Virus record (IMG/VR): IMGVR_UViG_3300034073_001388
Coordinates: 1 to 29,167 of that record
Reading direction: 5' to 3' (one strand)
DNA from: a virus
Taxonomy: Duplodnaviria > Caudoviricetes
DNA length: 29,167 nucleotides
The notes beneath the pieces are model-generated. The model did not search any database, had not been told where the DNA came from, and was given only the letters and a program-made list of their open reading frames with translations. This document shows, one piece after another, positions 317 to 26,631 of the stretch. Made by a program: the position numbers and the translations under genes. The number at the start of each line of letters is the position of its first letter. The first letter of the stretch is position 1.

Positions 317-2080
317 TTATCCCCCGAGTTGTGCGAGAAGTTCTTCGAGCGACGGCTCACCCACAGGACCAGCAGCAGGCGCCTCGGCACCCATACCTGG
401 CATCGCCAACCCTGGCATCGTCTCGGGTGAACCCTGCGGCATGGCTTCGGCTTGACGTTGACGTGCACGCTCATCGGTTTTGGCGACCGCTTCGAATAGT
501 GGGACGTCTTGTTCGACGACGAGACGGGTGAGGTACGCCAAATCCTCGGGCTGGTACGGGCCTTGCGGGTTCGCAGCCTGCTGCTGAATCGACGCCAACA
601 GCGCATCCTCAACGCCTTCGGCGATGATGCGGTCGTGTTCGAAGTCGGGGTCGGAAATCAGCGGGTCTGCTTCGCGAGCCGATTCTTTCGACATCAAACC
701 GACACCGAGACGCTGACCTAATCCGATGATGAGGTTGTTGACGTCGGTGCCAGCAGCCGAATACGAAACGAAGTGGTAGTCCGTCTGCCACACCTTGTTC
801 GGCGTGTACGTCTCCTGCCCTTGTGTCATACGACCAGACATGAAGAACGTTTTGGGCTGCCCACCCCAATAGGCTTTCTCTAATGCGATTGCGATTTTAT
901 CCTCGTGGAGTATCGAGTTGGCAAAGATTTCTTGTGCTTCTTGTACACGGTAATCCACCGTCGCTGAAAGCACGGCCTCGCCGCGTCTACCAGTTCGGAT
1001 GTTGGTTGCGGACTCGCCGCCGAACTCTGCGGGTATCGCGCCTTCAAGACGCTCTTGGCGTTCCAGACGGTCGAGGGCTGTGTCGGTTTTGTAACCAGGA
1101 TTTAGTTGCAACTGCTGGATGTCGCCACCTTTGACGACACCGAGGATGCCTGACTTGCCGTCAGCAAGTTGCAGGATTTCTGGGTTTTCGCCAGGGCGGG
1201 CAACCAAGTATTCTTCGGGGAAGATGCCGCGCTCAATCGCAATCTCCGTCAACGCCTGCAAACGTGCACGCGTGTAATACATCCCCAACACGCCATCAAA
1301 CTGACCACGCGGCTTATCGAGGGTGATTCGCTGCGGGACGACAGCGAGCGGCATACCAGTACGGTTCGGGATTGCCTCCAAAAGGATTGCCTGCAAACCC
1401 GCACGCTCAGACTGCGACAACTCAGGATTATCCTCAGCACCCAACACGATGAGTTGCATCGAATCATCACACACATACTCCAGCAGCGTGTAACGCGAAT
1501 CTGAGTCGACGCGACCGAAACGCAACTGACCCGACACCAACTCCCCATAGTTCTTCAACAACCATGACGCGGTGACACGCGAAGTGAAGATGCAGTTCTC
1601 TGGAACCACATCGTCGTCATCCATCGGCGCGGCGAACGTGTCCAACGGGTTACGCACCTGCCACTTCGGGGTCAACGTCGAGAAATCAGGCTTCAAGAAA
1701 ACTGGCGAAGACGAATACGCGAGCAGGTGTCGTGCGCGGCGACGCAACTTCATCTGCATACGGTTCTCATCCCAGAAACCGAGCATCGCCTTCTTACGCA
1801 TACGCGCCAACTTCTTCGAGTTCTCCGAACCCTCCTTCACAGGCGGGAAATACGGATTCGGCATCGTGGATGAGACGCGCATCGACATCTGTTCAAGCCC
1901 TTGTACGAGCAGGTTTGCTACGTTGGTTTTGGCGTTGCGGTCCAACTCATTGAGTGGAACAACGACGTCGCCGTTGGCAAGGTCGCGGACACGGCGCATC
2001 TGCTCATGAACAGGTCCAGCAGCGAGTCGGCGCTGGTGGTACAGTTCAACGATTTCGTCTAGTGAGCGCACAGTCTCCAA
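317..2080 (-). CDS. Portal protein (head-to-tail connector)
   Basis: 587 aa, directly downstream of terminase, with a Gln/Pro/Gly-rich C-tail typical of podovirus-like portals. True start may be GTG at 2071. Confidence 0.8.
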   Translation of the reverse strand: METVRSLDEIVELYHQRRLAAGPVHEQMRRVRDLANGDVVVPLNELDRNAKTNVANLLVQGLEQMSMRVSSTMPNPYFPPVKEGSENSKKLARMRKKAMLGFWDENRMQMKLRRRARHLLAYSSSPVFLKPDFSTLTPKWQVRNPLDTFAAPMDDDDVVPENCIFTSRVTASWLLKNYGELVSGQLRFGRVDSDSRYTLLEYVCDDSMQLIVLGAEDNPELSQSERAGLQAILLEAIPNRTGMPLAVVPQRITLDKPRGQFDGVLGMYYTRARLQALTEIAIERGIFPEEYLVARPGENPEILQLADGKSGILGVVKGGDIQQLQLNPGYKTDTALDRLERQERLEGAIPAEFGGESATNIRTGRRGEAVLSATVDYRVQEAQEIFANSILHEDKIAIALEKAYWGGQPKTFFMSGRMTQGQETYTPNKVWQTDYHFVSYSAAGTDVNNLIIGLGQRLGVGLMSKESAREADPLISDPDFEHDRIIAEGVEDALLASIQQQAANPQGPYQPEDLAYLTRLVVEQDVPLFEAVAKTDERARQRQAEAMPQGSPETMPGLAMPGMGAEAPAAGPVGEPSLEELLAQLGG

Positions 2081-2092
2081 TACGATAGCAAA

Positions 2093-4069
2093 TCAAATCC
2101 AGGAAGGGCGCCACAGGCGAGGCGGAACCTTCAACGGCCCCAACTCAGGCAGATGCAACATGGCAAACCAGCACGACATCACGAGGTCAGTCCCGTTCTT
2201 CTTGTTCGGCGTCCACGACGACAACTCCTCGACGAACGCCAACGTCTTCCAGTTTTCCCGCATCGTCGGCAGGCGAACCTGACCCGTCCTAAACAAGTTC
2301 GGCAGCAACGCCTCCACACCCAGGTTTTCGTCTAGTTTGTTCCTGGAGGTTGTATGAGGGATGACGTTGACCCCGTGAAGGGCTTGCCACTTGCGAACGA
2401 AATCGTGGGCGAGGAGGAACCGTTGGGCGGCGTTGACCTCAACAATCCAATGGGAGATGGGGTAGCCCATCTCGAACGACCTGTTCTGCCAAATCTCCAT
2501 TATGCCGCCGTACTCGCGGCTCGACGTATCGAAACCAAGTAGTTCCTCCGCCGTTAGTTTCACCCGCTCACAGTCAATCAAATAGCGCAGGTTTGTTTTG
2601 GGTTGGTAGAGCCACCATTGGATAGCCCAAAAGTTCGTCGGCGAAGGGTCCACTGAAGCAATCGAAATAATCGGCGGCTCCAGATTCGACGGAATGTACC
2701 CAGGCCTACGGTCATTGTCGATACACCCTGGATACAACACGCCATCGTTGCCCATGCCGCCCGTTGCCCAGACGCGTTCAATCAAATAGTTGCCTTGCGC
2801 CATGTCCTCCTGCTGATAGATGACCTGGAACTTCGCAGGCGTCGAGTGCTTCAGGTATGAGAGGTCTTTCCACGACAACCTGTACGGGTCCAACAGCGGT
2901 CCGTTGGGCCAGGGTGGTGCAGTAGTTTTCTTCGATTCGCGCCCCGTGTCCAGTTCCTCGTAGTAAGCCTTGTAAATGAAATGCGTGTACTTGGATTTTT
3001 TCTCTGGTTCTTGGACGTTGGAAACGTCGGTGACGTCGGACCCGTCGTACGCGTCAGGGTCTTCCTCGTAAGTCACTTTGGCGAGACAATGGGCGTAGAG
3101 GTCACCTGGTCCCAAACGCTGACCGATAACAGCCAACAAGCCGCCTGGGTCGACGCGTGCCTCAGCGACGGTATCCCACCGTTCCAAAAGTTTGTCTCTG
3201 GCGACGGACTCTTTTGCGTTCTCTGGGGTTGCCACGTCATCGAACAAACAGAGGTCGGCACGATGACCGATGAACTCTGAGTCAATACCGTACGAAGAAA
3301 CGGTCGGTTCTTTGTTGTCGAGACCTGAGAGGTCTTCTTGTTCGACGATGAACTCCTCAGCACGCCACAACGCGCCACTCGATGACGGTTTGAACCGCCC
3401 ATAGTCAATAGACAGACAGCCCTCGGCGTTGATAGCCAACCCTTTCTCCACCAAAATCGGGTCAGGATGCAAAGGAAACGGGCGTTCCAACGTCTCACGG
3501 ATACGACGGCTGTACATCTTCGCCAAGGTTTGTGTCGCTGAACCGATTAGCACACGAATCTTGCGGTTACGCACAATCATCCAACACGCAAAATCGTGAA
3601 ACAACGTCGACTTACCAGCACCAGGCGGACAGTTGATGAGAATGAACTCCTTCTCAGGAGATTCCAGCATCTTCACAATCTTGTACGCAGCATCCACCTG
3701 CCACGGGCTAGGTACTCGGCCTAAGTATCGGCGTCTGAAGTAGTCGAAATCATCCCAACCCCTCTGCGCCTCAGGGCTCAACCGCTCGTAGGGGATGACG
3801 GGCGGCAAATCGGCGACATCCATCGCCGCCTTCCACTGCTCCGCCTGCACACCACCCTGCTTCTTACGCACCTGACCGACCTCAACCTCAGCCAACTGAA
3901 TCTCCGCAGCCGCTTTCCGCTTCTTCGCCTCCCACTTCGACGCCGTATTGACGTGCACCCCAGCAATCTTCGATGCGTCCTGAATCGACATCCCAGCAGC
4001 ACGCGACTGCCAGTAGCGTGCGACATCCTGCGGCGGTATCTGCCGCCTCCCCGACCTACCTGCTGGCAT
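2093..4069 (-). CDS. terL: Terminase large subunit with N-terminal HTH extension
   Basis: Walker A CPPGAGKS, Walker B-like LCLFDD, RNase H-type motifs IASVDPS and DLVMS. N-terminal GMSIQDASKIAGVHVNTASKW is HTH-like. Confidence 0.9.
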   Translation of the reverse strand: MPAGRSGRRQIPPQDVARYWQSRAAGMSIQDASKIAGVHVNTASKWEAKKRKAAAEIQLAEVEVGQVRKKQGGVQAEQWKAAMDVADLPPVIPYERLSPEAQRGWDDFDYFRRRYLGRVPSPWQVDAAYKIVKMLESPEKEFILINCPPGAGKSTLFHDFACWMIVRNRKIRVLIGSATQTLAKMYSRRIRETLERPFPLHPDPILVEKGLAINAEGCLSIDYGRFKPSSSGALWRAEEFIVEQEDLSGLDNKEPTVSSYGIDSEFIGHRADLCLFDDVATPENAKESVARDKLLERWDTVAEARVDPGGLLAVIGQRLGPGDLYAHCLAKVTYEEDPDAYDGSDVTDVSNVQEPEKKSKYTHFIYKAYYEELDTGRESKKTTAPPWPNGPLLDPYRLSWKDLSYLKHSTPAKFQVIYQQEDMAQGNYLIERVWATGGMGNDGVLYPGCIDNDRRPGYIPSNLEPPIISIASVDPSPTNFWAIQWWLYQPKTNLRYLIDCERVKLTAEELLGFDTSSREYGGIMEIWQNRSFEMGYPISHWIVEVNAAQRFLLAHDFVRKWQALHGVNVIPHTTSRNKLDENLGVEALLPNLFRTGQVRLPTMRENWKTLAFVEELSSWTPNKKNGTDLVMSCWFAMLHLPELGPLKVPPRLWRPSWI

Positions 4070-5524: not shown

Positions 5525-5579
5525 TGTGACGAAAGTCACAGTGGAAAAAGTTGACAAGTGGCGACGGGTTCGCTATGGT
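5525..5579 (+). promoter_or_regulatory. Early promoter P1 with upstream CRP-family box
   Basis: TGTGA-CGAAAG-TCACA 5525-5540; TTGACA 5551-5556, 17-bp spacer, TATGGT 5574-5579; 5' hairpin 5586-5606. Confidence 0.8.
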
Positions 5580-5627: not shown

Positions 5628-5795
5628 GTGAACAAGCAACAGACACTCGCAAGGGTGACCAAGACGGGAACCGCCTTCGATGGCGCGACCGTTGAGGTCA
5701 TCGGGGCGAGCGAGACGGAAGGACACCTTAGCGTGTCTCTCATCGGCTACGACACCGTGCTATCGGTGGCGGAAACGAACCTAGAGCGTATCTAG
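5628..5795 (+). CDS. Small early hypothetical protein (55 aa)
   Basis: GAGAAAGG RBS, GTG start, MNKQQTLARVTKTG...NLERI. Below the ORF-track cutoff. Confidence 0.75.
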   Translation: MNKQQTLARVTKTGTAFDGATVEVIGASETEGHLSVSLIGYDTVLSVAETNLERI

Positions 5796-5798
5796 GTA

Positions 5799-5848
5799 GC
5801 CCGAAACGCCGTGAGGCGTCTGGCGGTTTCTCCGCCACTGATGAGGGC
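5799..5848 (+). ncRNA. Type II hammerhead ribozyme
   Basis: GCCC-GAAAC-GCC-GTGA-GGC-GTC^-TGGCGG-TTTCT-CCGCCA-CTGATGA-GGGC. Intact core (CUGAUGA, GAAA, GUC) with all three stems paired; cleavage predicted after 5820. Confidence 0.92.
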
Positions 5849-5872
5849 AGAACCCTGAGAGAAAGGTAAGAC

Positions 5873-6103
5873 ATGATTACGAGAAAGGACTACCAAGCCA
5901 TAGCGAAACTACTCGCGGTAGTAGGCGCGGAATCCCAAGAACACCGAACAGCGACCGACCAAGTAGCCGAGAAACTCGCGGACTACTTCGCGGTCACTAA
6001 TCCGAGGTTCGACCGAGAGCGTTTTACTTCGGCTTACCGAGTCGGGTGGGCTATCCTTCGGGCAGTGAAGCGCGTAGAGGAGTCGCGCCCCGTCACCGTC
6101 TGA
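5873..6103 (+). CDS. Early hypothetical protein (76 aa)
   Basis: GAGAAAGG RBS. MITRKDY...NPRFDRERF pattern recalled from small phage early proteins. Confidence 0.85.
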   Translation: MITRKDYQAIAKLLAVVGAESQEHRTATDQVAEKLADYFAVTNPRFDRERFTSAYRVGWAILRAVKRVEESRPVTV

Positions 6104-6112
6104 GGCAATACG

Positions 6113-6201
6113 ACCCTAGCCAAGTTTAGACTTGACTCGCCCGCGATAGGCGACTAGGGTACAAGGTAGAGCGTGCTCGTGGTGAGTACGCTACCGAATA
6201 C
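6113..6201 (+). ncRNA. Intergenic tRNA-minihelix-like structured element, copy 1
   Basis: 7-bp stem ACCCTAG/CTAGGGT, hairpin, 5-bp stem with 7-nt loop, ACAA, then GGTA-hairpin-TACCGAATA. Confidence 0.65.
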
Positions 6202-6218
6202 GAGAAAGGCAAAACAGA

Positions 6219-6593
6219 ATGACCAGAAAACAGGCGTTCGATTCCGCAATGCGTGAACTACGCAAGAACGGAATCACCGCGAAACGAAATGTTCAGGGCT
6301 GTTGTCGTTCGTGCGTAGCGTACGACCTGCCCCACGATAAGCCACTCGTCTGGCACTACGGCGGACAGGGAAACGCGTTCACTTGGCGGAACGATAAGCC
6401 CGTCTACACCTACACGCCCACCTACCAAGACGAAGAACCGATAGCGTCTATCTTCCTGAATCATTCGGGGCTAGTCGCCGATTCTGGCGAGCGCACCGAG
6501 GCGGGGCGGGTTGTGGTGGAAACATTCCTACGGCACGGGTTCGGGGTCGTCTGGAACGGCACCGAATCCAAGTGTGTAGAGGTGGTGTTCTAG
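6219..6593 (+). CDS. Early hypothetical protein (124 aa, CCxxC motif)
   Basis: GAGAAAGG RBS; GCCRSC motif; C-terminal VVWNGTESKCVEV. Confidence 0.85.
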   Translation: MTRKQAFDSAMRELRKNGITAKRNVQGCCRSCVAYDLPHDKPLVWHYGGQGNAFTWRNDKPVYTYTPTYQDEEPIASIFLNHSGLVADSGERTEAGRVVVETFLRHGFGVVWNGTESKCVEVVF

Positions 6594-6603
6594 CAAGGTT
6601 GCG

Positions 6604-6688
6604 ACCCTAGACAGGTAATGCTTGCGTGAGGCTCACGACCTCGCTAGGGTACAAGGTAACACTAAGCGTGGTGCTTGGTGACCGAATA
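6604..6688 (+). ncRNA. Intergenic tRNA-minihelix-like structured element, copy 2
   Basis: Same architecture as copy 1 with different but still paired internal stems. Confidence 0.65.
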
Positions 6689-6710
6689 ACAACAGAGAAA
6701 GGCAACACAA

Positions 6711-7013
6711 GTGAAAACGGATTATTGGTACACAAGTATTAACGAGATACGGTACGAGGCGAAGCGAGCAGGCTCGCATTTCTTCGATGCCGACACGATG
6801 CGATTCTTCGGCAGTCGGGTTCTACCGACTGTCTACGGGGGTCGCTACTTCATTACGAGCGAGCAAGACCACTACGGCAACGGGGCGAAGGCGTACACGA
6901 TTCGCATAGCCCTAGCAGGTGGAAACATAGACACGGTGGGCGACTTCCAAGCGTACGCGACGAGGGCGCAAGCGGTGTCAGCGGTGAAGCAACTACTCGC
7001 CGAGGGGGTGTGA
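6711..7013 (+). CDS. Early hypothetical protein (100 aa)
   Basis: GAGAAAGG RBS; HFFDADTMRFFGSRV...YFITSE motif. Confidence 0.85.
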   Translation: MKTDYWYTSINEIRYEAKRAGSHFFDADTMRFFGSRVLPTVYGGRYFITSEQDHYGNGAKAYTIRIALAGGNIDTVGDFQAYATRAQAVSAVKQLLAEGV

Positions 7014-7234
7014 CCGTGACCGAGCAAGAGAAACTAGACGAGGCGCTACGCACAATAAACTTGTGCCTGCGTGCGGTCGGGTTGGATACCCACCTCGGGC
7101 ACCGAACCCCGCAGACGCTACGCCTCAGTGCCGAGGGTGCTGAGAAGATAGCGGAAATGTTGCGCCGAATCGCCGATAATACGCGGGCGAAAGTGCGTGC
7201 CGAGCGCGAGTGGAATCAGAAGTGGGGTGCGTGA
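7010..7234 (+). CDS. Early hypothetical protein (74 aa)
   Basis: GTGA start/stop overlap with the upstream gene. Confidence 0.75.
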   Translation: MTVTEQEKLDEALRTINLCLRAVGLDTHLGHRTPQTLRLSAEGAEKIAEMLRRIADNTRAKVRAEREWNQKWGA

Positions 7235-7383
7235 CCGTGCCGAAGTGGGATAACTACACGAGCGCGTGCGACATCTGCGGGTATCGCATGGAAGGGTACG
7301 CCGAACACGAGACAGTGTGCGGGGCTTGCCTTGACGAGATAGAGCAACAAGAAGCCGACAAGAAAGAGAAGGTGAGCAAGTGA
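7231..7383 (+). CDS. Small zinc-finger-like protein (50 aa)
   Basis: GTGA overlaps at both ends; CDIC...CGAC. Not in the track. Confidence 0.7.
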   Translation: MTVPKWDNYTSACDICGYRMEGYAEHETVCGACLDEIEQQEADKKEKVSK

Positions 7384-7751
7384 CGCACGACGAACTCTAC
7401 GCACTAGCGACCCGTCACGGGCGAGACGCAGCCGAAAACTATTGGGTAACCGACCCCGCAGAACCCGAGCACGCTCGGGAATGGATACGCACCGCCGAGG
7501 CAGGCACACTACACGATTACGTTCTGCCTTCGCCGTTCGATGACTTCATGCCGAGCGACCTGAACACCGAAGGGTGGTCGTGGGGCGAGTTGGCAGACTA
7601 CGAAGGCTATTGGCTCGGGGCTTACTTAGAGCGCACGACAGAACTTATGCGCGGGAAGTTGGCTGAGGTGTGTGACTGTGACGGGTTGGAAGATGACCTG
7701 AAAGAGGAAGGTTACACCTGCTACAAGTGCTACGAAGGAGACGCGGAATGA
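7380..7751 (+). CDS. Acidic early hypothetical protein with C-terminal Cys cluster
   Basis: Coupled ORF; CDC...CYKC. Confidence 0.8.
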   Translation: MTHDELYALATRHGRDAAENYWVTDPAEPEHAREWIRTAEAGTLHDYVLPSPFDDFMPSDLNTEGWSWGELADYEGYWLGAYLERTTELMRGKLAEVCDCDGLEDDLKEEGYTCYKCYEGDAE

Positions 7752-8020
7752 GCGCGACAGTGTTCACCGTGTGGGTCGGCGGTTGCGAAGTGAACGACCA
7801 CTACCTCGGCGCGTTTGAGGCTGAGACGATAGCGGAATCGTGGCGCGATGACGGGTACGACGATGTTGTCGTGGAAGAACTAGCCGAGTGTCCCGCGTGC
7901 CTCTGGCATTATCCGCTTGGCGGGTGGGTTCGTGTCGCTTGGGAAGTGATGGGCGACCCGCGCACCTCTGTCGAAGTGTGTCCCGACTGCGGGCGACACG
8001 CCGAGGTGGTGACCGTATGA
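7748..8020 (+). CDS. Early hypothetical protein with two CxxC motifs
   Basis: ATGA overlap, GAAGGAG RBS; CPAC...CPDC. Confidence 0.75.
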   Translation: MSATVFTVWVGGCEVNDHYLGAFEAETIAESWRDDGYDDVVVEELAECPACLWHYPLGGWVRVAWEVMGDPRTSVEVCPDCGRHAEVVTV

Positions 8021-8175
8021 GGCACGCCGAATACGACTGCGACAGGTGCGGGGCTGAAACCCCCGACGGGCACGGGCACTACTACAAGGGCGAGAGGCTG
8101 TGCCCTGAGTGCTGTGAGGGGTTGCCGTTCTGGGAATACCTAGACGCTGACCTGACGGTAGGCGACGATGATTAG
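8017..8175 (+). CDS. Small zinc-finger-like protein (52 aa)
   Basis: ATGA overlap; CDRC...CPEC. Confidence 0.75.
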   Translation: MRHAEYDCDRCGAETPDGHGHYYKGERLCPECCEGLPFWEYLDADLTVGDDD

Positions 8176-8305
8176 GTTCATGTTCTGGGCGGTCGTCGTG
8201 AACCTCGCTTGCTTCACCCCGATTCTGTTGACGTGTCTAGCGTTTTGGGATTCGCAGGGTCGCCGTCAGTCGTTCGGGCGTTGGCTGAAAGAGAGGTTGC
8301 TATGA
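8168..8305 (+). CDS. Small membrane protein (45 aa)
   Basis: MIRFMFWAVVVNLACFTPILLTCLAFW...; overlaps both neighbours. Not in the track. Confidence 0.6.
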   Translation: MIRFMFWAVVVNLACFTPILLTCLAFWDSQGRRQSFGRWLKERLL

Positions 8306-8499
8306 GACCGCCGATAGTGGGGTATGCGCTCGGGCATACTTGGGTTGTGATGCTGACTGTCGGGTTTCTGTCTGGCTCGGTGGTGACGATGACGCTTGTC
8401 GGGTTGGCGGTGTATCCGTTTTTTCATCTTGGGGTGAAGGTGTGGCAGGTGTGGCGAACAGGTGTTCGTCGAACAGGTGTTCGGGGGTGGGGTCAATGA
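8302..8499 (+). CDS. Small membrane protein (65 aa)
   Basis: ATGA overlap, GAGG RBS, two hydrophobic segments. Confidence 0.6.
   Translation: MRPPIVGYALGHTWVVMLTVGFLSGSVVTMTLVGLAVYPFFHLGVKVWQVWRTGVRRTGVRGWGQ
8455..8483. promoter_or_regulatory. Tandem perfect LexA (SOS) boxes
   Basis: CGAACAGGTGTTCG at 8455-8468 and 8470-8483. Confidence 0.8.
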
Positions 8500-8515
8500 C
8501 CACGCCGTTTCGTAG

Positions 8516-8561
8516 TGTGACAAGAGTCACACTTGACAAACTGCCGAAAGTGTGCTATGAT
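8516..8561 (+). promoter_or_regulatory. Early promoter P2 with abutting CRP-family box
   Basis: TGTGA-CAAGAG-TCACA 8516-8531; TTGACA 8533-8538, 17-bp spacer, TGcTATGAT ending 8561; 5' hairpin 8568-8586. Confidence 0.85.
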
Positions 8562-8605
8562 GGTTTCGTCGGGCTGGTCGCCCGACACGAGAGAAAGGAG
8601 AGGGG

Positions 8606-8860
8606 GTGAACAAAGTGGACACCCTACAAGAAGATGAGCAGGTAACTCTGAACATCACCATGTCACGAGAAACAAAAGAAGAAGTGATGATGGCAGTGTT
8701 CAGGTACTACCAAGACATACTCCGAGCGATGGAAGAAGTGAAGCACAGCAATACGGAGTATGACAAGAAAGCAAGAGAAAAGAGAGAAAGAATCTGCCAA
8801 AACTTAGTGGCGGTACTAGGAGACTGGTACTCCCGCTGTGCGTTGCGTTACGAAATGTAA
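8606..8860 (+). CDS. Early hypothetical protein (84 aa)
   Basis: GAGAAAGGAG RBS; A-rich coding. Confidence 0.75.
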   Translation: MNKVDTLQEDEQVTLNITMSRETKEEVMMAVFRYYQDILRAMEEVKHSNTEYDKKAREKRERICQNLVAVLGDWYSRCALRYEM

Positions 8861-8866
8861 CTGGCA

Positions 8867-8926
8867 GGGTGACTAGCAGGCTGGGGAGTGCGAGCCTCCC
8901 CCACCCGCAAGGTAGCGATACCGAAT
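8867..8926 (+). ncRNA. Intergenic tRNA-minihelix-like structured element, copy 3 (divergent)
   Basis: GGGTG/CACCC stem, GGGAG-TGCGAGC-CTCCC arm, GCAA, GGTA-GCGA-TACC-GAATA. Confidence 0.55.
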
Positions 8927-8960
8927 ACCAAACAACCAACAGAGAAAGGACAACTAAATC

Positions 8961-9326
8961 ATGGGCGCAGACCTGATGATTAGCGCAATAGAAATCAAAC
9001 ACAACGAGGAAACAGCACTCCGAAAGGTTGACGAGTTGGCGATTACCGAAGCCGACTTATCCAACCTCACGGACATCGGTGTCTGGCGTTACGAGGACGA
9101 GGAGTTCACTCCCGAACTTGTCGAACGGATAAAAGCGGACTTGCGGAAAGCCGTCAAGGTCGTCTACCACTCAGGCAGGCGAGATACCACTCGGTTCTAT
9201 GTTGATTACGGCAAGACTAGCGAACGCAAGTTTGTCGTTACGGGTGGCATGTCGCACGGTGACGCACCAACCAACGCTTGGGATTCGTTCTGCCTAGTTG
9301 AGGCGTTTGCCTCAGTCATGGAATGA
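8961..9326 (+). CDS. Early hypothetical protein (121 aa)
   Basis: GAGAAAGG RBS; MGADL...VTGGMSHGDAPT. Confidence 0.85.
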   Translation: MGADLMISAIEIKHNEETALRKVDELAITEADLSNLTDIGVWRYEDEEFTPELVERIKADLRKAVKVVYHSGRRDTTRFYVDYGKTSERKFVVTGGMSHGDAPTNAWDSFCLVEAFASVME

Positions 9327-9492
9327 TGATGCCTCGGCGTAGCGAGTGGGGGTGCGATGCTTGCGGGTGTCGCATCACTCTTCACGTCACGCCGTCTGAA
9401 CCGCCTCGCCATAGGTGCGGTGGTTCTGCTCGGGCGGAGAAGTTCATACAACTAATACCAATAACCAAACAAACAGAGAAAGGGAACAAGTA

Positions 9493-9660
9493 ATGACCAC
9501 AGAAACAAGAAAGTTGGTGGCGGGATTCGTCATCTTCGACAAGACCACAGGCAGAGTGCTCGCCACACTGCCCCAAACCCTCTCCATCGGAGACACGGTG
9601 GACGGGTTCACCCGTGCGGGCTACGAAGTGGACTGGCACTGGAAGGAGATGGAAGCGTGA
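9493..9660 (+). CDS. Early hypothetical protein (55 aa)
   Basis: GAGAAAGG RBS at 9476 and ATG at 9493 (track start 9415 unlikely). Confidence 0.75.
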   Translation: MTTETRKLVAGFVIFDKTTGRVLATLPQTLSIGDTVDGFTRAGYEVDWHWKEMEA

Positions 9661-9911
9661 AGCCGATACCAGCAAACGCAACGGGGGCGTGGTGCACCAT
9701 CAAGTACCACGACGAAGACAACACACTCTCGCCCGTGTTCTTCTCCTTCGGAGAATACGACGAGGACAAGGACATGGTGTACGACTCGCTCGGACACCGA
9801 GACGACCTCGTGTTCTTCTACACTTCGCCAGAAGAGTTGCCCGACCTTATGACCGACTGGGGTCAAGACTTCCAAGTGCTCTCGGTCGAGTACTACGAGG
9901 TGGCACGATGA
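9657..9911 (+). CDS. Acidic early hypothetical protein (84 aa)
   Basis: GTGA overlap. Confidence 0.8.
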   Translation: MKPIPANATGAWCTIKYHDEDNTLSPVFFSFGEYDEDKDMVYDSLGHRDDLVFFYTSPEELPDLMTDWGQDFQVLSVEYYEVAR

Positions 9912-10222
9912 CACGCACGGCAACAGTCGAACAGTGGGAAGCGTTCTTCCGACCCGTACCCAACACCATCAGCGACGAACCATCATGGCAAGACCTCGAC
10001 GGGGTAGGGATAATGTTCTCCACGTCTGGCGAGGAACACGAGTTCGTGTGCGACCACAACCTCAAACGCCAAGTCTGGACATGGGTCGACGGCGACGACG
10101 GAACCTACATCGTGAACGGCTACTCGTTCGTGAACCGTATCGGCTACTTCGTAACCGAGATACCGTACGACGACGGCGACAGTTGGGAAATCAAGGTCGA
10201 TGACTTTGAGGTGGCGGTATGA
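9908..10222 (+). CDS. Acidic early hypothetical protein (104 aa)
   Basis: ATGA overlap, GAGG RBS; VWTWVDGDDG...VNRIGYFVTE. Confidence 0.85.
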   Translation: MTRTATVEQWEAFFRPVPNTISDEPSWQDLDGVGIMFSTSGEEHEFVCDHNLKRQVWTWVDGDDGTYIVNGYSFVNRIGYFVTEIPYDDGDSWEIKVDDFEVAV

Positions 10223-10695
10223 CGCACCCCGAACTCCCGTTCACACCGTACGACGGAACAGGCGGTCACGCAGGCTCAGAGGCAAGCCGACTCAGAGCAG
10301 AGACGGAAGCCGAAGACGGCACACTCGCAGACAGACAAGCCCTCATCTTGGACTACCTAGACAAGACAGGTGCTGGCGGTGCGACATGGGCAACCACAGG
10401 ACAAGCACTCAGCCTTCATCACGGGCAAGTCTCAGGCGCGCTATCGAACCTTCACCAAGCAGGGGCGGTGTTCATGCTGAGGAAGCGAAGCAACCGAAGC
10501 CACCCGTACATACACGCCAAGTATCGTGCGTTCTACACCGACGCAGAGGTACACGACTCACCCAAGACGACGAAGGCTGGGCAGAGGCGGGTCAGGTTGG
10601 AAGAGTTGGTGGCAGCGTGCCGTGACGGGCTGACATCGGGGTTTGACGGGCAGCGTATCGCTGGCATCGTCAAGGCTCTCGATGAGTTGGCTTAG
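10219..10695 (+). CDS. Winged-helix DNA-binding protein
   Basis: RQALILDYL...GATWATTGQALSLHHGQVSGALSNLHQAGAV is wHTH-like. Confidence 0.7.
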   Translation: MTHPELPFTPYDGTGGHAGSEASRLRAETEAEDGTLADRQALILDYLDKTGAGGATWATTGQALSLHHGQVSGALSNLHQAGAVFMLRKRSNRSHPYIHAKYRAFYTDAEVHDSPKTTKAGQRRVRLEELVAACRDGLTSGFDGQRIAGIVKALDELA

Positions 10696-15601: not shown

Positions 15602-15630
15602 ACCGTACAGGAGGGGAGTCACATTGTCAA
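15602..15630 (-). promoter_or_regulatory. Sigma70-like promoter for the recombination/whiB operon
   Basis: TTGACA (15630-15625), 17-bp spacer, TACGGT (15607-15602). Confidence 0.65.
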
Positions 15631-16164
15631 GTTTCTCATTTCGACAAGGTACTTATAGCCTTTTTTGAGGTTGCAGGCGGCGCAGGCAGGGGCAAGATTG
15701 CCTATTGAATGTCGGCCACCCCTGGAAAGGGGAATGATGTGGTCTATGTGCTCAAATCGGCCACCGCACATGTAGCAGGGGCTGTTGCGTATTCGCCTAA
15801 GTTCTTTTGCTGTTACTTTGAAAACGCCAGCCTGAAGTTTTTTGGCTCTTCGTCTCTGTACGTATTGTACTTGGTCTCTAATCCTTTGCTCGCGTTGACT
15901 TTTGTATCTGTCCCGTTGATAGGAAACATTGCGCTCACGATTGTTCCAATAGCGCGCTCGCGCTTCCGCTCGGAGACGTGGAAGATGGCTGTTTCGAAAT
16001 CGCCGTTGAGCCGCAATTCTGGCCGCCCGATTTTTTTGATACTTTGCTTTATCGTGTTTTTTGTGACAAGGCCTACACATCCTGGCCAGCGCGTCATGGC
16101 GTGATTTGTCTGAACGGAACTCCGTCTTGGGTTTAGTGGTGTGGCACTTGGGGCAGTACTTCAT
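15619..16164 (-). CDS. HNH endonuclease (free-standing, homing-like)
   Basis: CYMC...HIDHIIPLSRGG.H...NL...CAACN; N-terminal CxxC pair; visibly AT-richer than its flanks. Confidence 0.9.
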   Translation of the reverse strand: MKYCPKCHTTKPKTEFRSDKSRHDALARMCRPCHKKHDKAKYQKNRAARIAAQRRFRNSHLPRLRAEARARYWNNRERNVSYQRDRYKSQREQRIRDQVQYVQRRRAKKLQAGVFKVTAKELRRIRNSPCYMCGGRFEHIDHIIPLSRGGRHSIGNLAPACAACNLKKGYKYLVEMRNLTM

Positions 16165-17350: not shown

Positions 17351-17582
17351 TGTCAAGCATCCCCTCCGAGGCATGAGAATCTAGATGACGGGTGAGCCGT
17401 TCGTCAACTCGGTCCACCTTCGTTTCGATACGGTTCTGGGACTTGTACAGCATCGTGAGGACCCCGCGGACGTAGGCGTGGTCGTCGTGGTTTTCTCTCT
17501 TGAACTGCTGGAGGACTCCGACGATTACACCTCCGACTGCCGTGACTACGGCAGCCAAGACGAGCGCCCAGCCCCCATCCAT
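17295..17582 (-). CDS. Single-TM lysis-cassette protein (holin/accessory)
   Basis: N-terminal TM then coiled coil; directly after the endolysin. Confidence 0.65.
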   Translation of the reverse strand: MDGGWALVLAAVVTAVGGVIVGVLQQFKRENHDDHAYVRGVLTMLYKSQNRIETKVDRVDERLTRHLDSHASEGMLDNGRTVHQNGVESTKQVSS

Positions 17583-18133
17583 TATGCCTCAGTCGGCTTG
17601 TTCGCGAGCCACTCTTTGACGCGGGTGGGCACGTTGTCGCCCGTGACGTAACGCAGATGCCACGGCTCGGACTGGACTTCCCATGAGAAGCCGAATGACT
17701 GTGCGTGTTTGAGCAGCCACTCCAAGCGTTTGCCTGAGGCGTGGGCGATGTCGATGGCGATGCCGAGGTTGTGGTTGCTGGTGCCTGGAACCGCCATTGG
17801 CGCTAACCCTTTTTTGAGGTACCAGACTTTCCCTTTGTAGATGCGCGGCGTTTGCTTGAGGAGTTTCTTGCCTGGTTTGTCCGTGTGCCTTTGGTAGAAG
17901 CCGTACTCTTGGGTTTCGAGCGAACGGTACGTGTCGGCTTGGCTGGTTGGGGAGAGGTCGATTCCTTCGGCGTTGGCTGCTGCGTCCATTGCTTCGTATG
18001 CGTCAGCCGCACAATGATGGAGTTTGCCTTTGCCTTCAATGCCGCGAAGAAGTTCGGGAGCGAGTTCACCAGGTTTTACCCCTTTCAGGTGGGTGCATAG
18101 GGTGACTTTGACGACGGGGTATTTGTCGGGCAT
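17582..18133 (-). CDS. Endolysin, peptidase M15 (VanY-like)
   Basis: YRS...Q, PGTSNHNLGIAID (SxHxxGxAxD), EPWH. Confidence 0.9.
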   Translation of the reverse strand: MPDKYPVVKVTLCTHLKGVKPGELAPELLRGIEGKGKLHHCAADAYEAMDAAANAEGIDLSPTSQADTYRSLETQEYGFYQRHTDKPGKKLLKQTPRIYKGKVWYLKKGLAPMAVPGTSNHNLGIAIDIAHASGKRLEWLLKHAQSFGFSWEVQSEPWHLRYVTGDNVPTRVKEWLANKPTEA

Positions 18134-25407: not shown

Positions 25408-25531
25408 GGCGGGCCTCCGACATTCCGATGGCGATTGCCTGCTTGCGCGACTTGACCTTCTTGCCTGAAGAAGACTTCAGGGTGCCGCGCTTGTACTCTC
25501 CCATAACTTTCTTCATTTTGTCTTTCTTCAT
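25391..25531 (-). CDS. Small Lys-rich protein, DUF6496-like (46 aa)
   Basis: KVMGEYKRGTLKSSSGKKVKSRKQAIAIGMSEA; GGAGG RBS. Confidence 0.75.
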   Translation of the reverse strand: MKKDKMKKVMGEYKRGTLKSSSGKKVKSRKQAIAIGMSEARRAKKK

Positions 25532-26631
25532 GTGACCTCCATAGTGTACGAATCAACGTATCCTGCTGCACGCACCACGTCAAGCACCCCTTCCGACACA
25601 CGCATCGGAACACCCTTCGTGAACCTGTAGGTTTTGTCTGCGATGTCGCATTGAAGGTTGCGGTCAAGGGTGACCCGATACCAGACGGTCGCATGTTTGA
25701 ACACGGGGTCGGCAATCAACGACCCTACGGGAAGGGTGTCTGTGAGTTTTCGGGCTGCCGAAGCCCACGACCAGTCAGCCAGTTTCGGTACCGTAGCCTT
25801 AGCCCAACCAAGGTGTTTGTCGTGGTTTGTGTACATTTCGCGCATCGCCTCGGCTAGTTCCCGCGGGTCGGATTCATCCCACATCCCGCCGTAATGCGAT
25901 TCGGCTGGCTTGTGGGAGATGACGATGGGGGCGAGATGCGCAAAGTCGCCTTGCCCTGATGCCGCGTTCATAATCGTCGGCACCCCGCACGCCATCGCCT
26001 GCAACGGCATCAAGCCGAAACCTTCGCCCCTGGTTGCCGCTATCCAGCAGTCTGCGCTACGGAAAAAGTCGAGGGTTTGGTCGTCGGTGAACCAGCCGCG
26101 GTGCAAAAACACGTTATCTGGCAGGTCCAGTTCGGGTACCCCGAACGCTTCAGGGTTCGGTTTCAGGTGCAACTCGGCGTCGAGGTCAGCCATGATGAAC
26201 GCCTTCAACACGATGTCCAAACCTTTGCGCAGCCACTGTGACCCGCCAGCATGAAACCTGAATCTGTGGTTCGCGGCCCTTTTCTTCGGTTTCCACCGTT
26301 CCACATCCACCCCCAACGGAACAAGTTTCACGTCTCGATGATGCTTCGAGAACAGTTCAAGGTTGTGGGTGCAGGGAACGATTACCTGGTCGTATGCGGG
26401 TAGCCAGTCAATGAAACGCTCGGGCAGGGTGTCTGACTCCCACATCGTAAAACACGTCTTGTGTTGACCTGCGTAAAAGTGTTTGATTTGGAACGGCTGC
26501 ATCATAAACACCATCACGTCGGCGTGGTCGTGCAGGGTTACGTCGGTGGGTGCGTTGTCAACGAACCCTTTGAGCATTGACCCGTACCCGTATTTGGGGT
26601 CGGGGAAACCACGCCAAGACTGGTAGTTCAA
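25528..26631 (-). CDS. Glycosyltransferase, GT-B / family 4
   Basis: RKGLD...EGFGLMPLQAMACGVP. Confidence 0.9.
   Translation of the reverse strand: MNYQSWRGFPDPKYGYGSMLKGFVDNAPTDVTLHDHADVMVFMMQPFQIKHFYAGQHKTCFTMWESDTLPERFIDWLPAYDQVIVPCTHNLELFSKHHRDVKLVPLGVDVERWKPKKRAANHRFRFHAGGSQWLRKGLDIVLKAFIMADLDAELHLKPNPEAFGVPELDLPDNVFLHRGWFTDDQTLDFFRSADCWIAATRGEGFGLMPLQAMACGVPTIMNAASGQGDFAHLAPIVISHKPAESHYGGMWDESDPRELAEAMREMYTNHDKHLGWAKATVPKLADWSWASAARKLTDTLPVGSLIADPVFKHATVWYRVTLDRNLQCDIADKTYRFTKGVPMRVSEGVLDVVRAAGYVDSYTMEVT

Follow-up and report, generated by a model that had tools for sequence, protein, structure and literature searches.

Three tRNA-like elements in the early gene block of a tailed phage

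The stretch of DNA analysed here (the window) is one contig of 29,167 nt from a tailed phage, IMG/VR record IMGVR_UViG_3300034073_001388. Besides portal, terminase and other genes (Table 1), it encodes a WhiB protein (PF02467, E 7.8e-22), from which we infer that the host is probably actinobacterial; the same applies to the related phages. A block of small genes extends on the plus strand from 5628 to 10695 and is presumably driven by two near-consensus promoters (5551 and 8533). The first is the predicted start of a transcript carrying a type II hammerhead ribozyme and two copies of an RNA element, a third copy lying downstream of the second promoter. Behind the stop codon of the upstream gene, the element consists of a closing stem (S1), a D-like hairpin, a T-arm stacked on S1, the linker R73-C74-D75-A76, a second hairpin (hairpin 2), an A/C-rich spacer and a Shine-Dalgarno (SD) sequence. 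We conclude that these copies belong to a real, covarying and uncatalogued family of phage RNAs, whose members imitate the elbow of tRNA and take the place of hammerheads.

Table 1. Features of the phage contig, including the three copies of the tRNA-like element
Feature	Position	Strand	Details
Portal gene	317-2080		
Terminase gene	2093-4069		
Putative early promoter	5551..5579	+	TTGACA-17-TATGGT, then 5' hairpin and SD
Type II hammerhead	5799..5853	+	In equivalent slot; Rfam 26.3 bits, below gathering score 37; predicted cut after C5820
Copy 1, tRNA-like domain	6113..6160	+	S1 6113-6119/6154-6160
Copy 1, D-like hairpin	6121-6134	+	Loop TTAG
Copy 1, T-arm	6137-6153	+	Loop CGCGATA
Copy 1, linker R73-C74-D75-A76	6161..6164	+	ACAA; predicted cut region
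Copy 1, downstream part	6165..6209	+	Hairpin 6165-6195, GAAT 6196-6199, SD GAGAAAGG 6202-6209
Gene after copy 1	6219-6593	+	
Copy 2, tRNA-like domain	6604..6650	+	S1 6604-6610/6644-6650, D-like hairpin 6612-6624
Copy 2, T-arm	6627-6643	+	Loop CTCACGA
Copy 2, downstream part	6651..6702	+	Linker ACAA 6651-6654, hairpin 6655-6683, AC-rich spacer, SD 6695-6702
DUF7447 gene after copy 2	6711-7013	+	
Second putative early promoter	8533..8561	+	TTGACA-17-TATGAT, then 5' hairpin and SD; upstream of copy 3
Copy 3, short form	8867..8906	+	S1 of 5 bp, 8867-8871/8902-8906
Copy 3, D-loop-like linker	8872-8882	+	11 nt
Copy 3, T-arm	8883-8901	+	6 bp; loop TGCGAGC
Copy 3, downstream part	8907..8949	+	Linker GCAA 8907-8910, hairpin 8911-8922, AC-rich spacer, SD 8942-8949
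Gene after copy 3	8961-9326	+	
HNH endonuclease gene	15619-16164	minus	
VanY-like peptidase domain	17582-18133	minus	Probably endolysin
Glycosyltransferase gene	25528-26631	minus	
RecE-like exonuclease gene		minus	

The three copies had been proposed in an initial annotation of the letters, and most of its description was confirmed. S1 starts at the positions given there, 9, 10 and 6 nt after the stops at 6103, 6593 and 8860, and pairs ACCCTAG with CTAGGGT in copies 1 and 2 and GGGTG with CACCC in copy 3. The stacked stems TCGCC/GGCGA, TGAGG/CCTCG and GGGAG/CTCCC each close a 7-nt loop, and the RCAA tails, the GGTA-hairpin-ACCGAATA unit, the common GTGGT loop and GAGAAAGG were all found in the window. 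The stacked stem of 5 bp and the one variable hairpin per copy hold for copies 1 and 2, but copy 3 has a T-arm of 6 bp and an unpaired linker of 11 nt instead of the hairpin. Likewise, the motifs GGTA, ACCGAATA, GAGAAAGG and RCAA are features of a subfamily and not of the whole family, as homologues found without these patterns carry R-C-D-A tails, other hairpins and other SD sites.

Within the window, the combination CAAGGT-N(3-33)-ACCGAAT occurs three times against 0.05 expected, a number reached in 0 of 100 shuffles, and GAGAAAGG sites occur 12 times against 0.79 expected. Copies 1 and 2 fold better than shuffled sequences (z -3.73 and -3.10), but copy 3 alone does not (z -0.74), and for copy 2, minimum-energy folding predicts a structure other than the proposed one, which lies about 3-5 kcal/mol higher. 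The case for the fold therefore rests on comparison and not on folding energy.

A covarying family in related phages

Pattern scans returned 22 and 86 viral loci, as well as 118 metagenome loci from a scan covering 20 of 64 parts. Most of these were chance matches; true copies, which were chosen by structure, were held by 7 of the 118 metagenome loci, and single 8-mers with one mismatch were uninformative. As a check on bias, the slot contents were read in the best 80 of 110 terminase relatives and in 14 relatives of the gene behind copy 2. Here, we used a descriptor that specifies a stem, a stacked T-arm and an N-K-C-R loop and leaves the tail unconstrained. In the 48 relatives with enough upstream DNA, 38 of 57 distinct early-sense matches of this tail-blind scan ended in R-C-N-A, none of them with CCA. 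Such ends were absent from the controls, namely antisense matches (0/17), the late and structural region (0/9) and shuffled DNA (0/7), and 22 of the 48 relatives had at least one early-sense match of this type.

The curated set of 68 distinct copies was assembled from the 50 R-C-N-A ends among 137 matches, less one dismissed as chance, plus 21 added by hand, with duplicates removed; the three copies of the window enter it through the near-identical locus L164. As the 68 were selected on R-C-N-A and K-C-R, invariance there is by construction, and the independent tests are the tail-blind scan for the tail and, for the loop C and its spacing, a group of 26 copies whose choice relied on the 3' motif alone. 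A covariance model found four further copies, all four with an R-C-D-A end, and the family thus comprises at least 72 distinct copies in related phages.

The layout is kept throughout the curated set. S1 starts 6-9 nt past the upstream stop in 48/68 copies, a D-like hairpin is present in 62/68 (the remainder having an 11-nt linker or nothing), and hairpin 2 begins at position 77 or 78 in 63/68. Position 73 is A in 44/68, C75 occurs in 1/68, and CCA is encoded in 1/72 copies. The bases at -1 and 73 could form a Watson-Crick pair in a single copy of 68 and a G-U pair in three. Upstream of S1, a pyrimidine at -2 (60/67) and a purine at -1 (52/67) recur in both subfamilies, for example at 6109-6112 of the window. 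A permuted duplication, with an upstream GAATACG repeating the 3' end, was considered and dismissed, several copies having a C-rich leader.

Covariation was evident from a plain MAFFT alignment of 23 copies. All 15 modelled pairs of the 5' domain showed two-sided changes, G-U pairs occurred, and 92% of the cells were paired, compared to 27-46% with slid partners. In a model-fitted alignment, two-sided changes were found in 24 of 27 pairs. These controls do not remove relatedness; yet the copies comprise 42 different S1 and 48 different T-arm sequences. Positions 55 and 75 gave no clean covariation pattern.

Two variants of the downstream part were observed. In one subfamily (L182, L189, L195, L203, L207, L209, L213 and L220), hairpin 2 is followed by a third conserved hairpin, then GTTCA and the SD, and its members are the first element of their early block. 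At L308:2860-2900 (+), hairpin 2 is the palindrome TGTGAC-AAGA-GTCACA, directly followed by a TTGACA promoter, which indicates an element fused to a promoter cassette.

Likeness to the tRNA elbow

The geometry of a tRNA minihelix, as proposed initially, is borne out by the 26 copies picked on the 3' motif alone. In all of them, the loop C is present and precedes the end of S1 by 16 nt, which is the distance from C56 to N72 in tRNA. In the 68 curated copies, which were pre-selected, this distance is 16 (39 copies), 15 (21) or 14 (8). The lengths of S1 and T-arm are anti-correlated (r -0.46; standard deviation of the sum 0.92, of the difference 1.49), as expected of a ruler, a trade-off that is partly circular owing to the limits of the descriptor; the copy of L011 is one continuous 12-bp hairpin. 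Canonical T-loops occur in a minority of copies, with examples in L119, L166, L155, L190, L200, L203, L212 and L309, in some of them in the form GGTTCGAnTCC. Among these, L119 and L309 are of the copy 3 type with the loop TTCGAGT, and L309 combines G-TTCGAGT-C with a GGCAGAC linker and an ACCA end. The D-like loop ends in G in 45/62 copies (17/31 distinct loops), which is suggestive of a partner for C56.

The elements are not tRNA genes. The stack of about 12 bp and the spacing of C56 agree with one, but the anticodon arm is missing and so is, in all but one copy, an encoded NCCA end: between S1 and the T-arm there is one hairpin or none, and ARAGORN called no tRNA or tmRNA in the window or in 48 relatives. 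Separate, degenerate tRNA-like folds were seen upstream of the early promoter region in L166 (~9040-9105, minus strand) and L173 (~8940-9010, minus strand), and the former has a canonical T-loop and an ACCA end and is not called by ARAGORN.

Shortened tRNA mimics with acceptor stem, T-arm and reduced D region are also known from mascRNA/menRNA (RF01684) and the tRNA-like domain of tmRNA, the latter with a stemless D-loop-like linker as in copy 3. For RF01684, only the 17-nt T-arm of L309 aligns, at chance level (14.6 bits, gathering score 42.5, E 1.8).

Exchange with hammerhead ribozymes and shuffling of early genes

The hammerhead upstream of copy 1 had been regarded as lying in an equivalent slot, and we found two gene families that support this by swaps between hammerhead and element. 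In the first, the 76-aa gene at 5873, a hammerhead stands ahead of the gene in the window and L155, and an element in L015 and L089, whose gene behind the slot is near-identical to that of the window; more distant family members have a promoter ahead. In the second, a 49-aa gene is preceded by a hammerhead in L200 and by an element in L189 and L220. Whether it arises from a promoter, from a hammerhead cut or from a cut in the R-C-D-A linker, the resulting 5' end would carry a hairpin before the SD. Five type II hammerheads were recognised by pattern in early-gene slots (window 5799-5853, L015, L155, L193 and L200); of these, the two that Rfam scored do not reach the gathering score, so standard annotation misses them.

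The intergenic and tandem hammerheads described from phages and prophages lie in the same slot between genes of polycistronic phage RNA, and tandem ones cleave such RNA in vitro (PMC3088659). Unlike these, the element has no hammerhead core and no third helix, and it likely needs a host enzyme. A type III hammerhead was rejected as well, since the core strand is R-C-D-A and not CUGANGA/GAAA and no third helix joins leader and trailer.

Altogether, 67 elements precede 44 different gene clusters, and one subtype precedes different genes in different phages. With these numbers, the cassette shuffling suggested in the initial annotation is plausible as a by-product; the shared cores probably serve as crossover sites as well, at which early genes can be swapped. 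A function purely at the DNA level, as a cassette of sigma-type promoter, 5' hairpin and SD and/or as a recombination anchor for gene shuffling, would agree with the same numbers and with the hairpin-SD layout shared by both putative early promoters. In addition, copies 1 and 2 contain promoter look-alikes (TTGACT/TTGCGT-17-TAGGGT at 6132-6160 and 6622-6650), and the phage encodes a RecE-like exonuclease. We nevertheless consider this very unlikely: a -35/-10 look-alike is present in only 18/68 copies and absent from copy 3, the matches are strand-specific, and the two-sided changes in 15/15 pairs with G-U pairs as well as the conservation of the T-loop need an explanation at the RNA level.

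A candidate cut signal for host tRNA-processing nucleases

On balance, the element probably directs host tRNA-processing nucleases to cut the transcript, and a 3'-side cut of the RNase Z type is most likely. Taken separately, such a 3'-side cut, with or without prior RNase P, is quite possible, and RNase P alone is unlikely. In the proposed mechanism, the D-like loop would dock on the T-loop and form an elbow; the enzyme would clamp the elbow, measure the stack of 11-13 bp and cut after R73 or within the R-C-D-A linker. This would leave a protective tRNA-like fold at the end of the upstream mRNA and a nearly flush hairpin at the start of the downstream mRNA, ahead of a strong SD. A type II hammerhead would give an equal outcome, with each of its two products retaining a terminal hairpin, and the exchange of both devices in one slot points to cutting. 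RNase P might cut at +1, alone or first, and both cuts together would release a mini-tRNA of ~40-50 nt.

RNase Z clamps the elbow and measures the distance, with CCA as an antideterminant (PMC4919913). It cuts trailers that start with CC or CCA poorly and does not need the D and anticodon arms, and the Bacillus subtilis enzyme is slowed by 5' extensions of at least 33 nt (PMC7479834). The elements provide the acceptor/T-arm, an unpaired discriminator and a trailer that does not start with CC or CCA, and the avoidance of C75 fits the block of RNase Z by these bases. Actinobacteria differ: in Streptomyces coelicolor, 53 of 65 tRNA genes lack CCA, and the majority of the 12 tRNAs with an encoded CCA are cut between its two Cs (PMC4681348).

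RNase P reads the elbow, a 12-bp ruler and R73-C74-C75, and it cuts acceptor/T-arm minihelices (PMC11143913). The ruler, a T-loop (degenerate in many copies) and the unpaired -1/73 are present in the elements; from the R73-C74-C75 that pairs to GGU of L15, R73 and C74 are kept and C75 is found in 1/68. With a G75 substrate at 2 mM Mg, B. subtilis RNase P is more than 100-fold slower (PMC1874595, Table 3), and the missing C75 argues against fast cutting by this enzyme. CCA-less substrates are cut by RNase P in vivo. The rarity of U at -1 (3/68) was dropped as a case against RNase P because U-1 is not dominant in high-GC bacteria. The earlier claim of RNase P or RNase Z substrates appears as the best reading, with a tail that fits neither enzyme perfectly.

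Several points weigh against it. Conserved here is C74, which alone inhibits B. subtilis RNase Z; the elements are embedded in a long transcript and have a short leader only if RNase P cuts first; and 67/68 copies lack C75. Furthermore, +1 is G in only 33/68, many T-loops are degenerate (position 58 is A in 27/68), and the conserved C74, A76 and pyrimidine at -2 (60/67) are unexplained by such cutting. Concerning the family itself, 26 of the 48 relatives had no match in the descriptor scan, some of which hold copies that the descriptor misses. A model from window-like copies recovered only some of the R-C-G-A copies (E 0.003-0.2) and missed copy 3 of the window (E up to 3), so that unity and breadth of the family depend partly on the descriptor and on intermediate forms (L156, L175 and L177). 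Finally, the host is tentatively assigned by way of WhiB, and the whole case, including the predicted cutting, is built on sequence.

The tail can also be read as if processing were avoided, being suboptimal both for RNase P (no C75) and for RNase Z of the B. subtilis type (C74, long leader). The fold would then stay uncut in the mRNA and bind an elbow-recognising factor, either a host or phage protein or the ribosome, or act as an exonuclease roadblock or as a decoy, the latter also suggested initially, and would stabilise or boost the next gene. The start of S1 6-9 nt after the stop in 48/68 copies, which is just past the unwinding site of the terminating ribosome, suggests as well that the fold must persist. 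We regard an uncut mimic as somewhat unlikely, since the slot exchange with hammerheads favours cutting, the linker of four bases is constant and is followed by a hairpin flush at 77/78, like a prepared 5' end, and the 27 open reading frames scanned included no candidate binding protein.

Cutting without a host enzyme was considered, too. The linker R-C-D-A would face the strand leaving hairpin 2 (in the window, GCAAG vs CGAAU), and the element might be a self-cleaving ribozyme with a cut N^A, perhaps with a rearranged twister-sister-like core; it would form a new class on an anticodon-less tRNA elbow, with R-C-D-A and the base of the next hairpin as active site. Such a scaffold, which shares its slot with hammerheads, could replace them without a host enzyme. 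The window copies match the register of twister-sister L1 (G5 C6 A7 A8 G9 / C60 U61 C62^A63 U64), and the loop TGCGAGC of copy 3 resembles SL4 (PMC5660989). Minimal twister-sister-like cores exist (PMC11620745), and in terms of the described ribozymes (PMC5660989; PMC11620745), the window subfamily shares the GCAAG strand and a UGCRAGY T-loop. The base opposite C74 is A in 34/35 RCAA copies, but in only 16/32 of the others, although A63U kills twister-sister, and position 73 is A in 44/68, although G5A nearly abolishes its cleavage (PMC5660989). A G59 bulge and a P1 pairing 3' of the would-be cut are missing; the T-loop sits on the wrong side (S1 instead of P2) at a fixed distance of 12 bp; leader and trailer pair no better than shuffled partners (96-98% of 5000 permutations were as good); and no copy scanned matched an Rfam ribozyme. 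A new self-cleaving class appears improbable, and the ribozyme option of the initial annotation lost ground, since twister-sister and hammerhead-type cores fail membership. Specifically, twister-sister (RF02681) was rejected because G5/A63, P1 3' of the cut, the G59 bulge and a P2-side SL4 are not kept family-wide and Rfam gave no match. A T-loop folding back on the linker as in twister-sister is disfavoured by the anti-correlated stem lengths and by the copy with one continuous hairpin.

Highly improbable, in our view, is a structure-guided site for RNase E. The mycobacterial enzyme cuts RN^CNU, where C is the +1 base and purines are weakly favoured ahead of it (PMC10641625), and cutting before C is also reported in bioRxiv 10.64898/2026.04.06.716707. 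An actinobacterial enzyme cutting 5' of cytidines would here act between the conserved R73 and C74, but the +3 base is A and not U, just four unpaired bases lie between two helices, and the T-loop and the 12-bp ruler are left unexplained.

Known systems and implications

In principle, such cutting by tRNA-processing enzymes has precedents in the t-elements of plant mitochondria and in single RNase P substrates of phages. The t-elements are tRNA-like folds by mRNA ends, proposed as cis-signals by which RNase Z and/or RNase P would make 5' and 3' ends of mRNAs (PMC1920247). Unlike them, the present elements are found in a bacterial virus, form one family between many genes, lack an anticodon arm, avoid CCA, have a built-in downstream hairpin and SD, and are exchangeable with hammerheads; their cleavage is a prediction. 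In phages, the C4 antisense RNA of P1/P7 and the M3 RNA of phi80 are tRNA-like and are cut by the host enzyme from a longer transcript (PMC11143913). The elements differ from these in being multi-copy and intergenic with variable loops. RNAs of the C4, M3 and CI type, the CI RNA of P4 being a further RNase P substrate, are single-copy, trans-acting antisense regulators. C4 itself (RF01695) was rejected, as Rfam gave no match above chance level on the elements.

More generally, the comparison with Rfam that had been advised was run, and no described family matches the elements: scans of the window, of 9 + 7 loci and of two short regions returned nothing beyond chance-level matches and type II hammerheads that fell short of the gathering score. 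Literature searches aimed at such phage elements returned no account of them. In the sections of PMC10690425, PMC5737381 and PMC10085705 that were covered, the family was not seen; it may be among the candidate models of PMC10690425 or PMC5737381. A search of three of the six supplements of PMC10690425 for three contig names and two motifs, one of them spelled both as DNA and as RNA, gave no match.

If cutting by host tRNA nucleases is the right explanation, phages would run a bacterial version of mitochondrial tRNA punctuation, borrowing the tRNA-maturation enzymes of the host to divide the early operon into gene units that are each stabilised separately. With two unrelated devices in one slot, the required outcome would be defined, and the purpose of intergenic phage ribozymes would become testable. 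The 70-odd natural variants are a mutational series on the way in which the elbow, the 12-bp ruler and positions 73-76 are read by actinobacterial RNase P and RNase Z, including the odd rule that C74 and A76 are kept and C75 is avoided. A portable processing cassette of ~90 nt could also be useful for operon engineering in Streptomyces or Corynebacterium.

Promoter boxes and setting of the early block

A palindrome TGTGA-N6-TCACA, which we take to be a CRP/GlxR-type box, lies immediately upstream of both early promoters (5525-5540 and 8516-8531). Similar boxes are present at 7 of 80 related loci and may tie the early genes to cyclic AMP signalling of the host. The slot at 9440-9493 has an AC-rich spacer and GAGAAAGG as in copy 3, without element or hammerhead ahead.

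The cultured phages nearest to the terminase share ~25% identity at best and are mostly Streptomyces phages, and a search of genome contigs gave no relative for the terminase or for WhiB. The early region is highly plastic, as L178 and similar terminase relatives lack the AGAAAGG early block or have small genes on the opposite strand.

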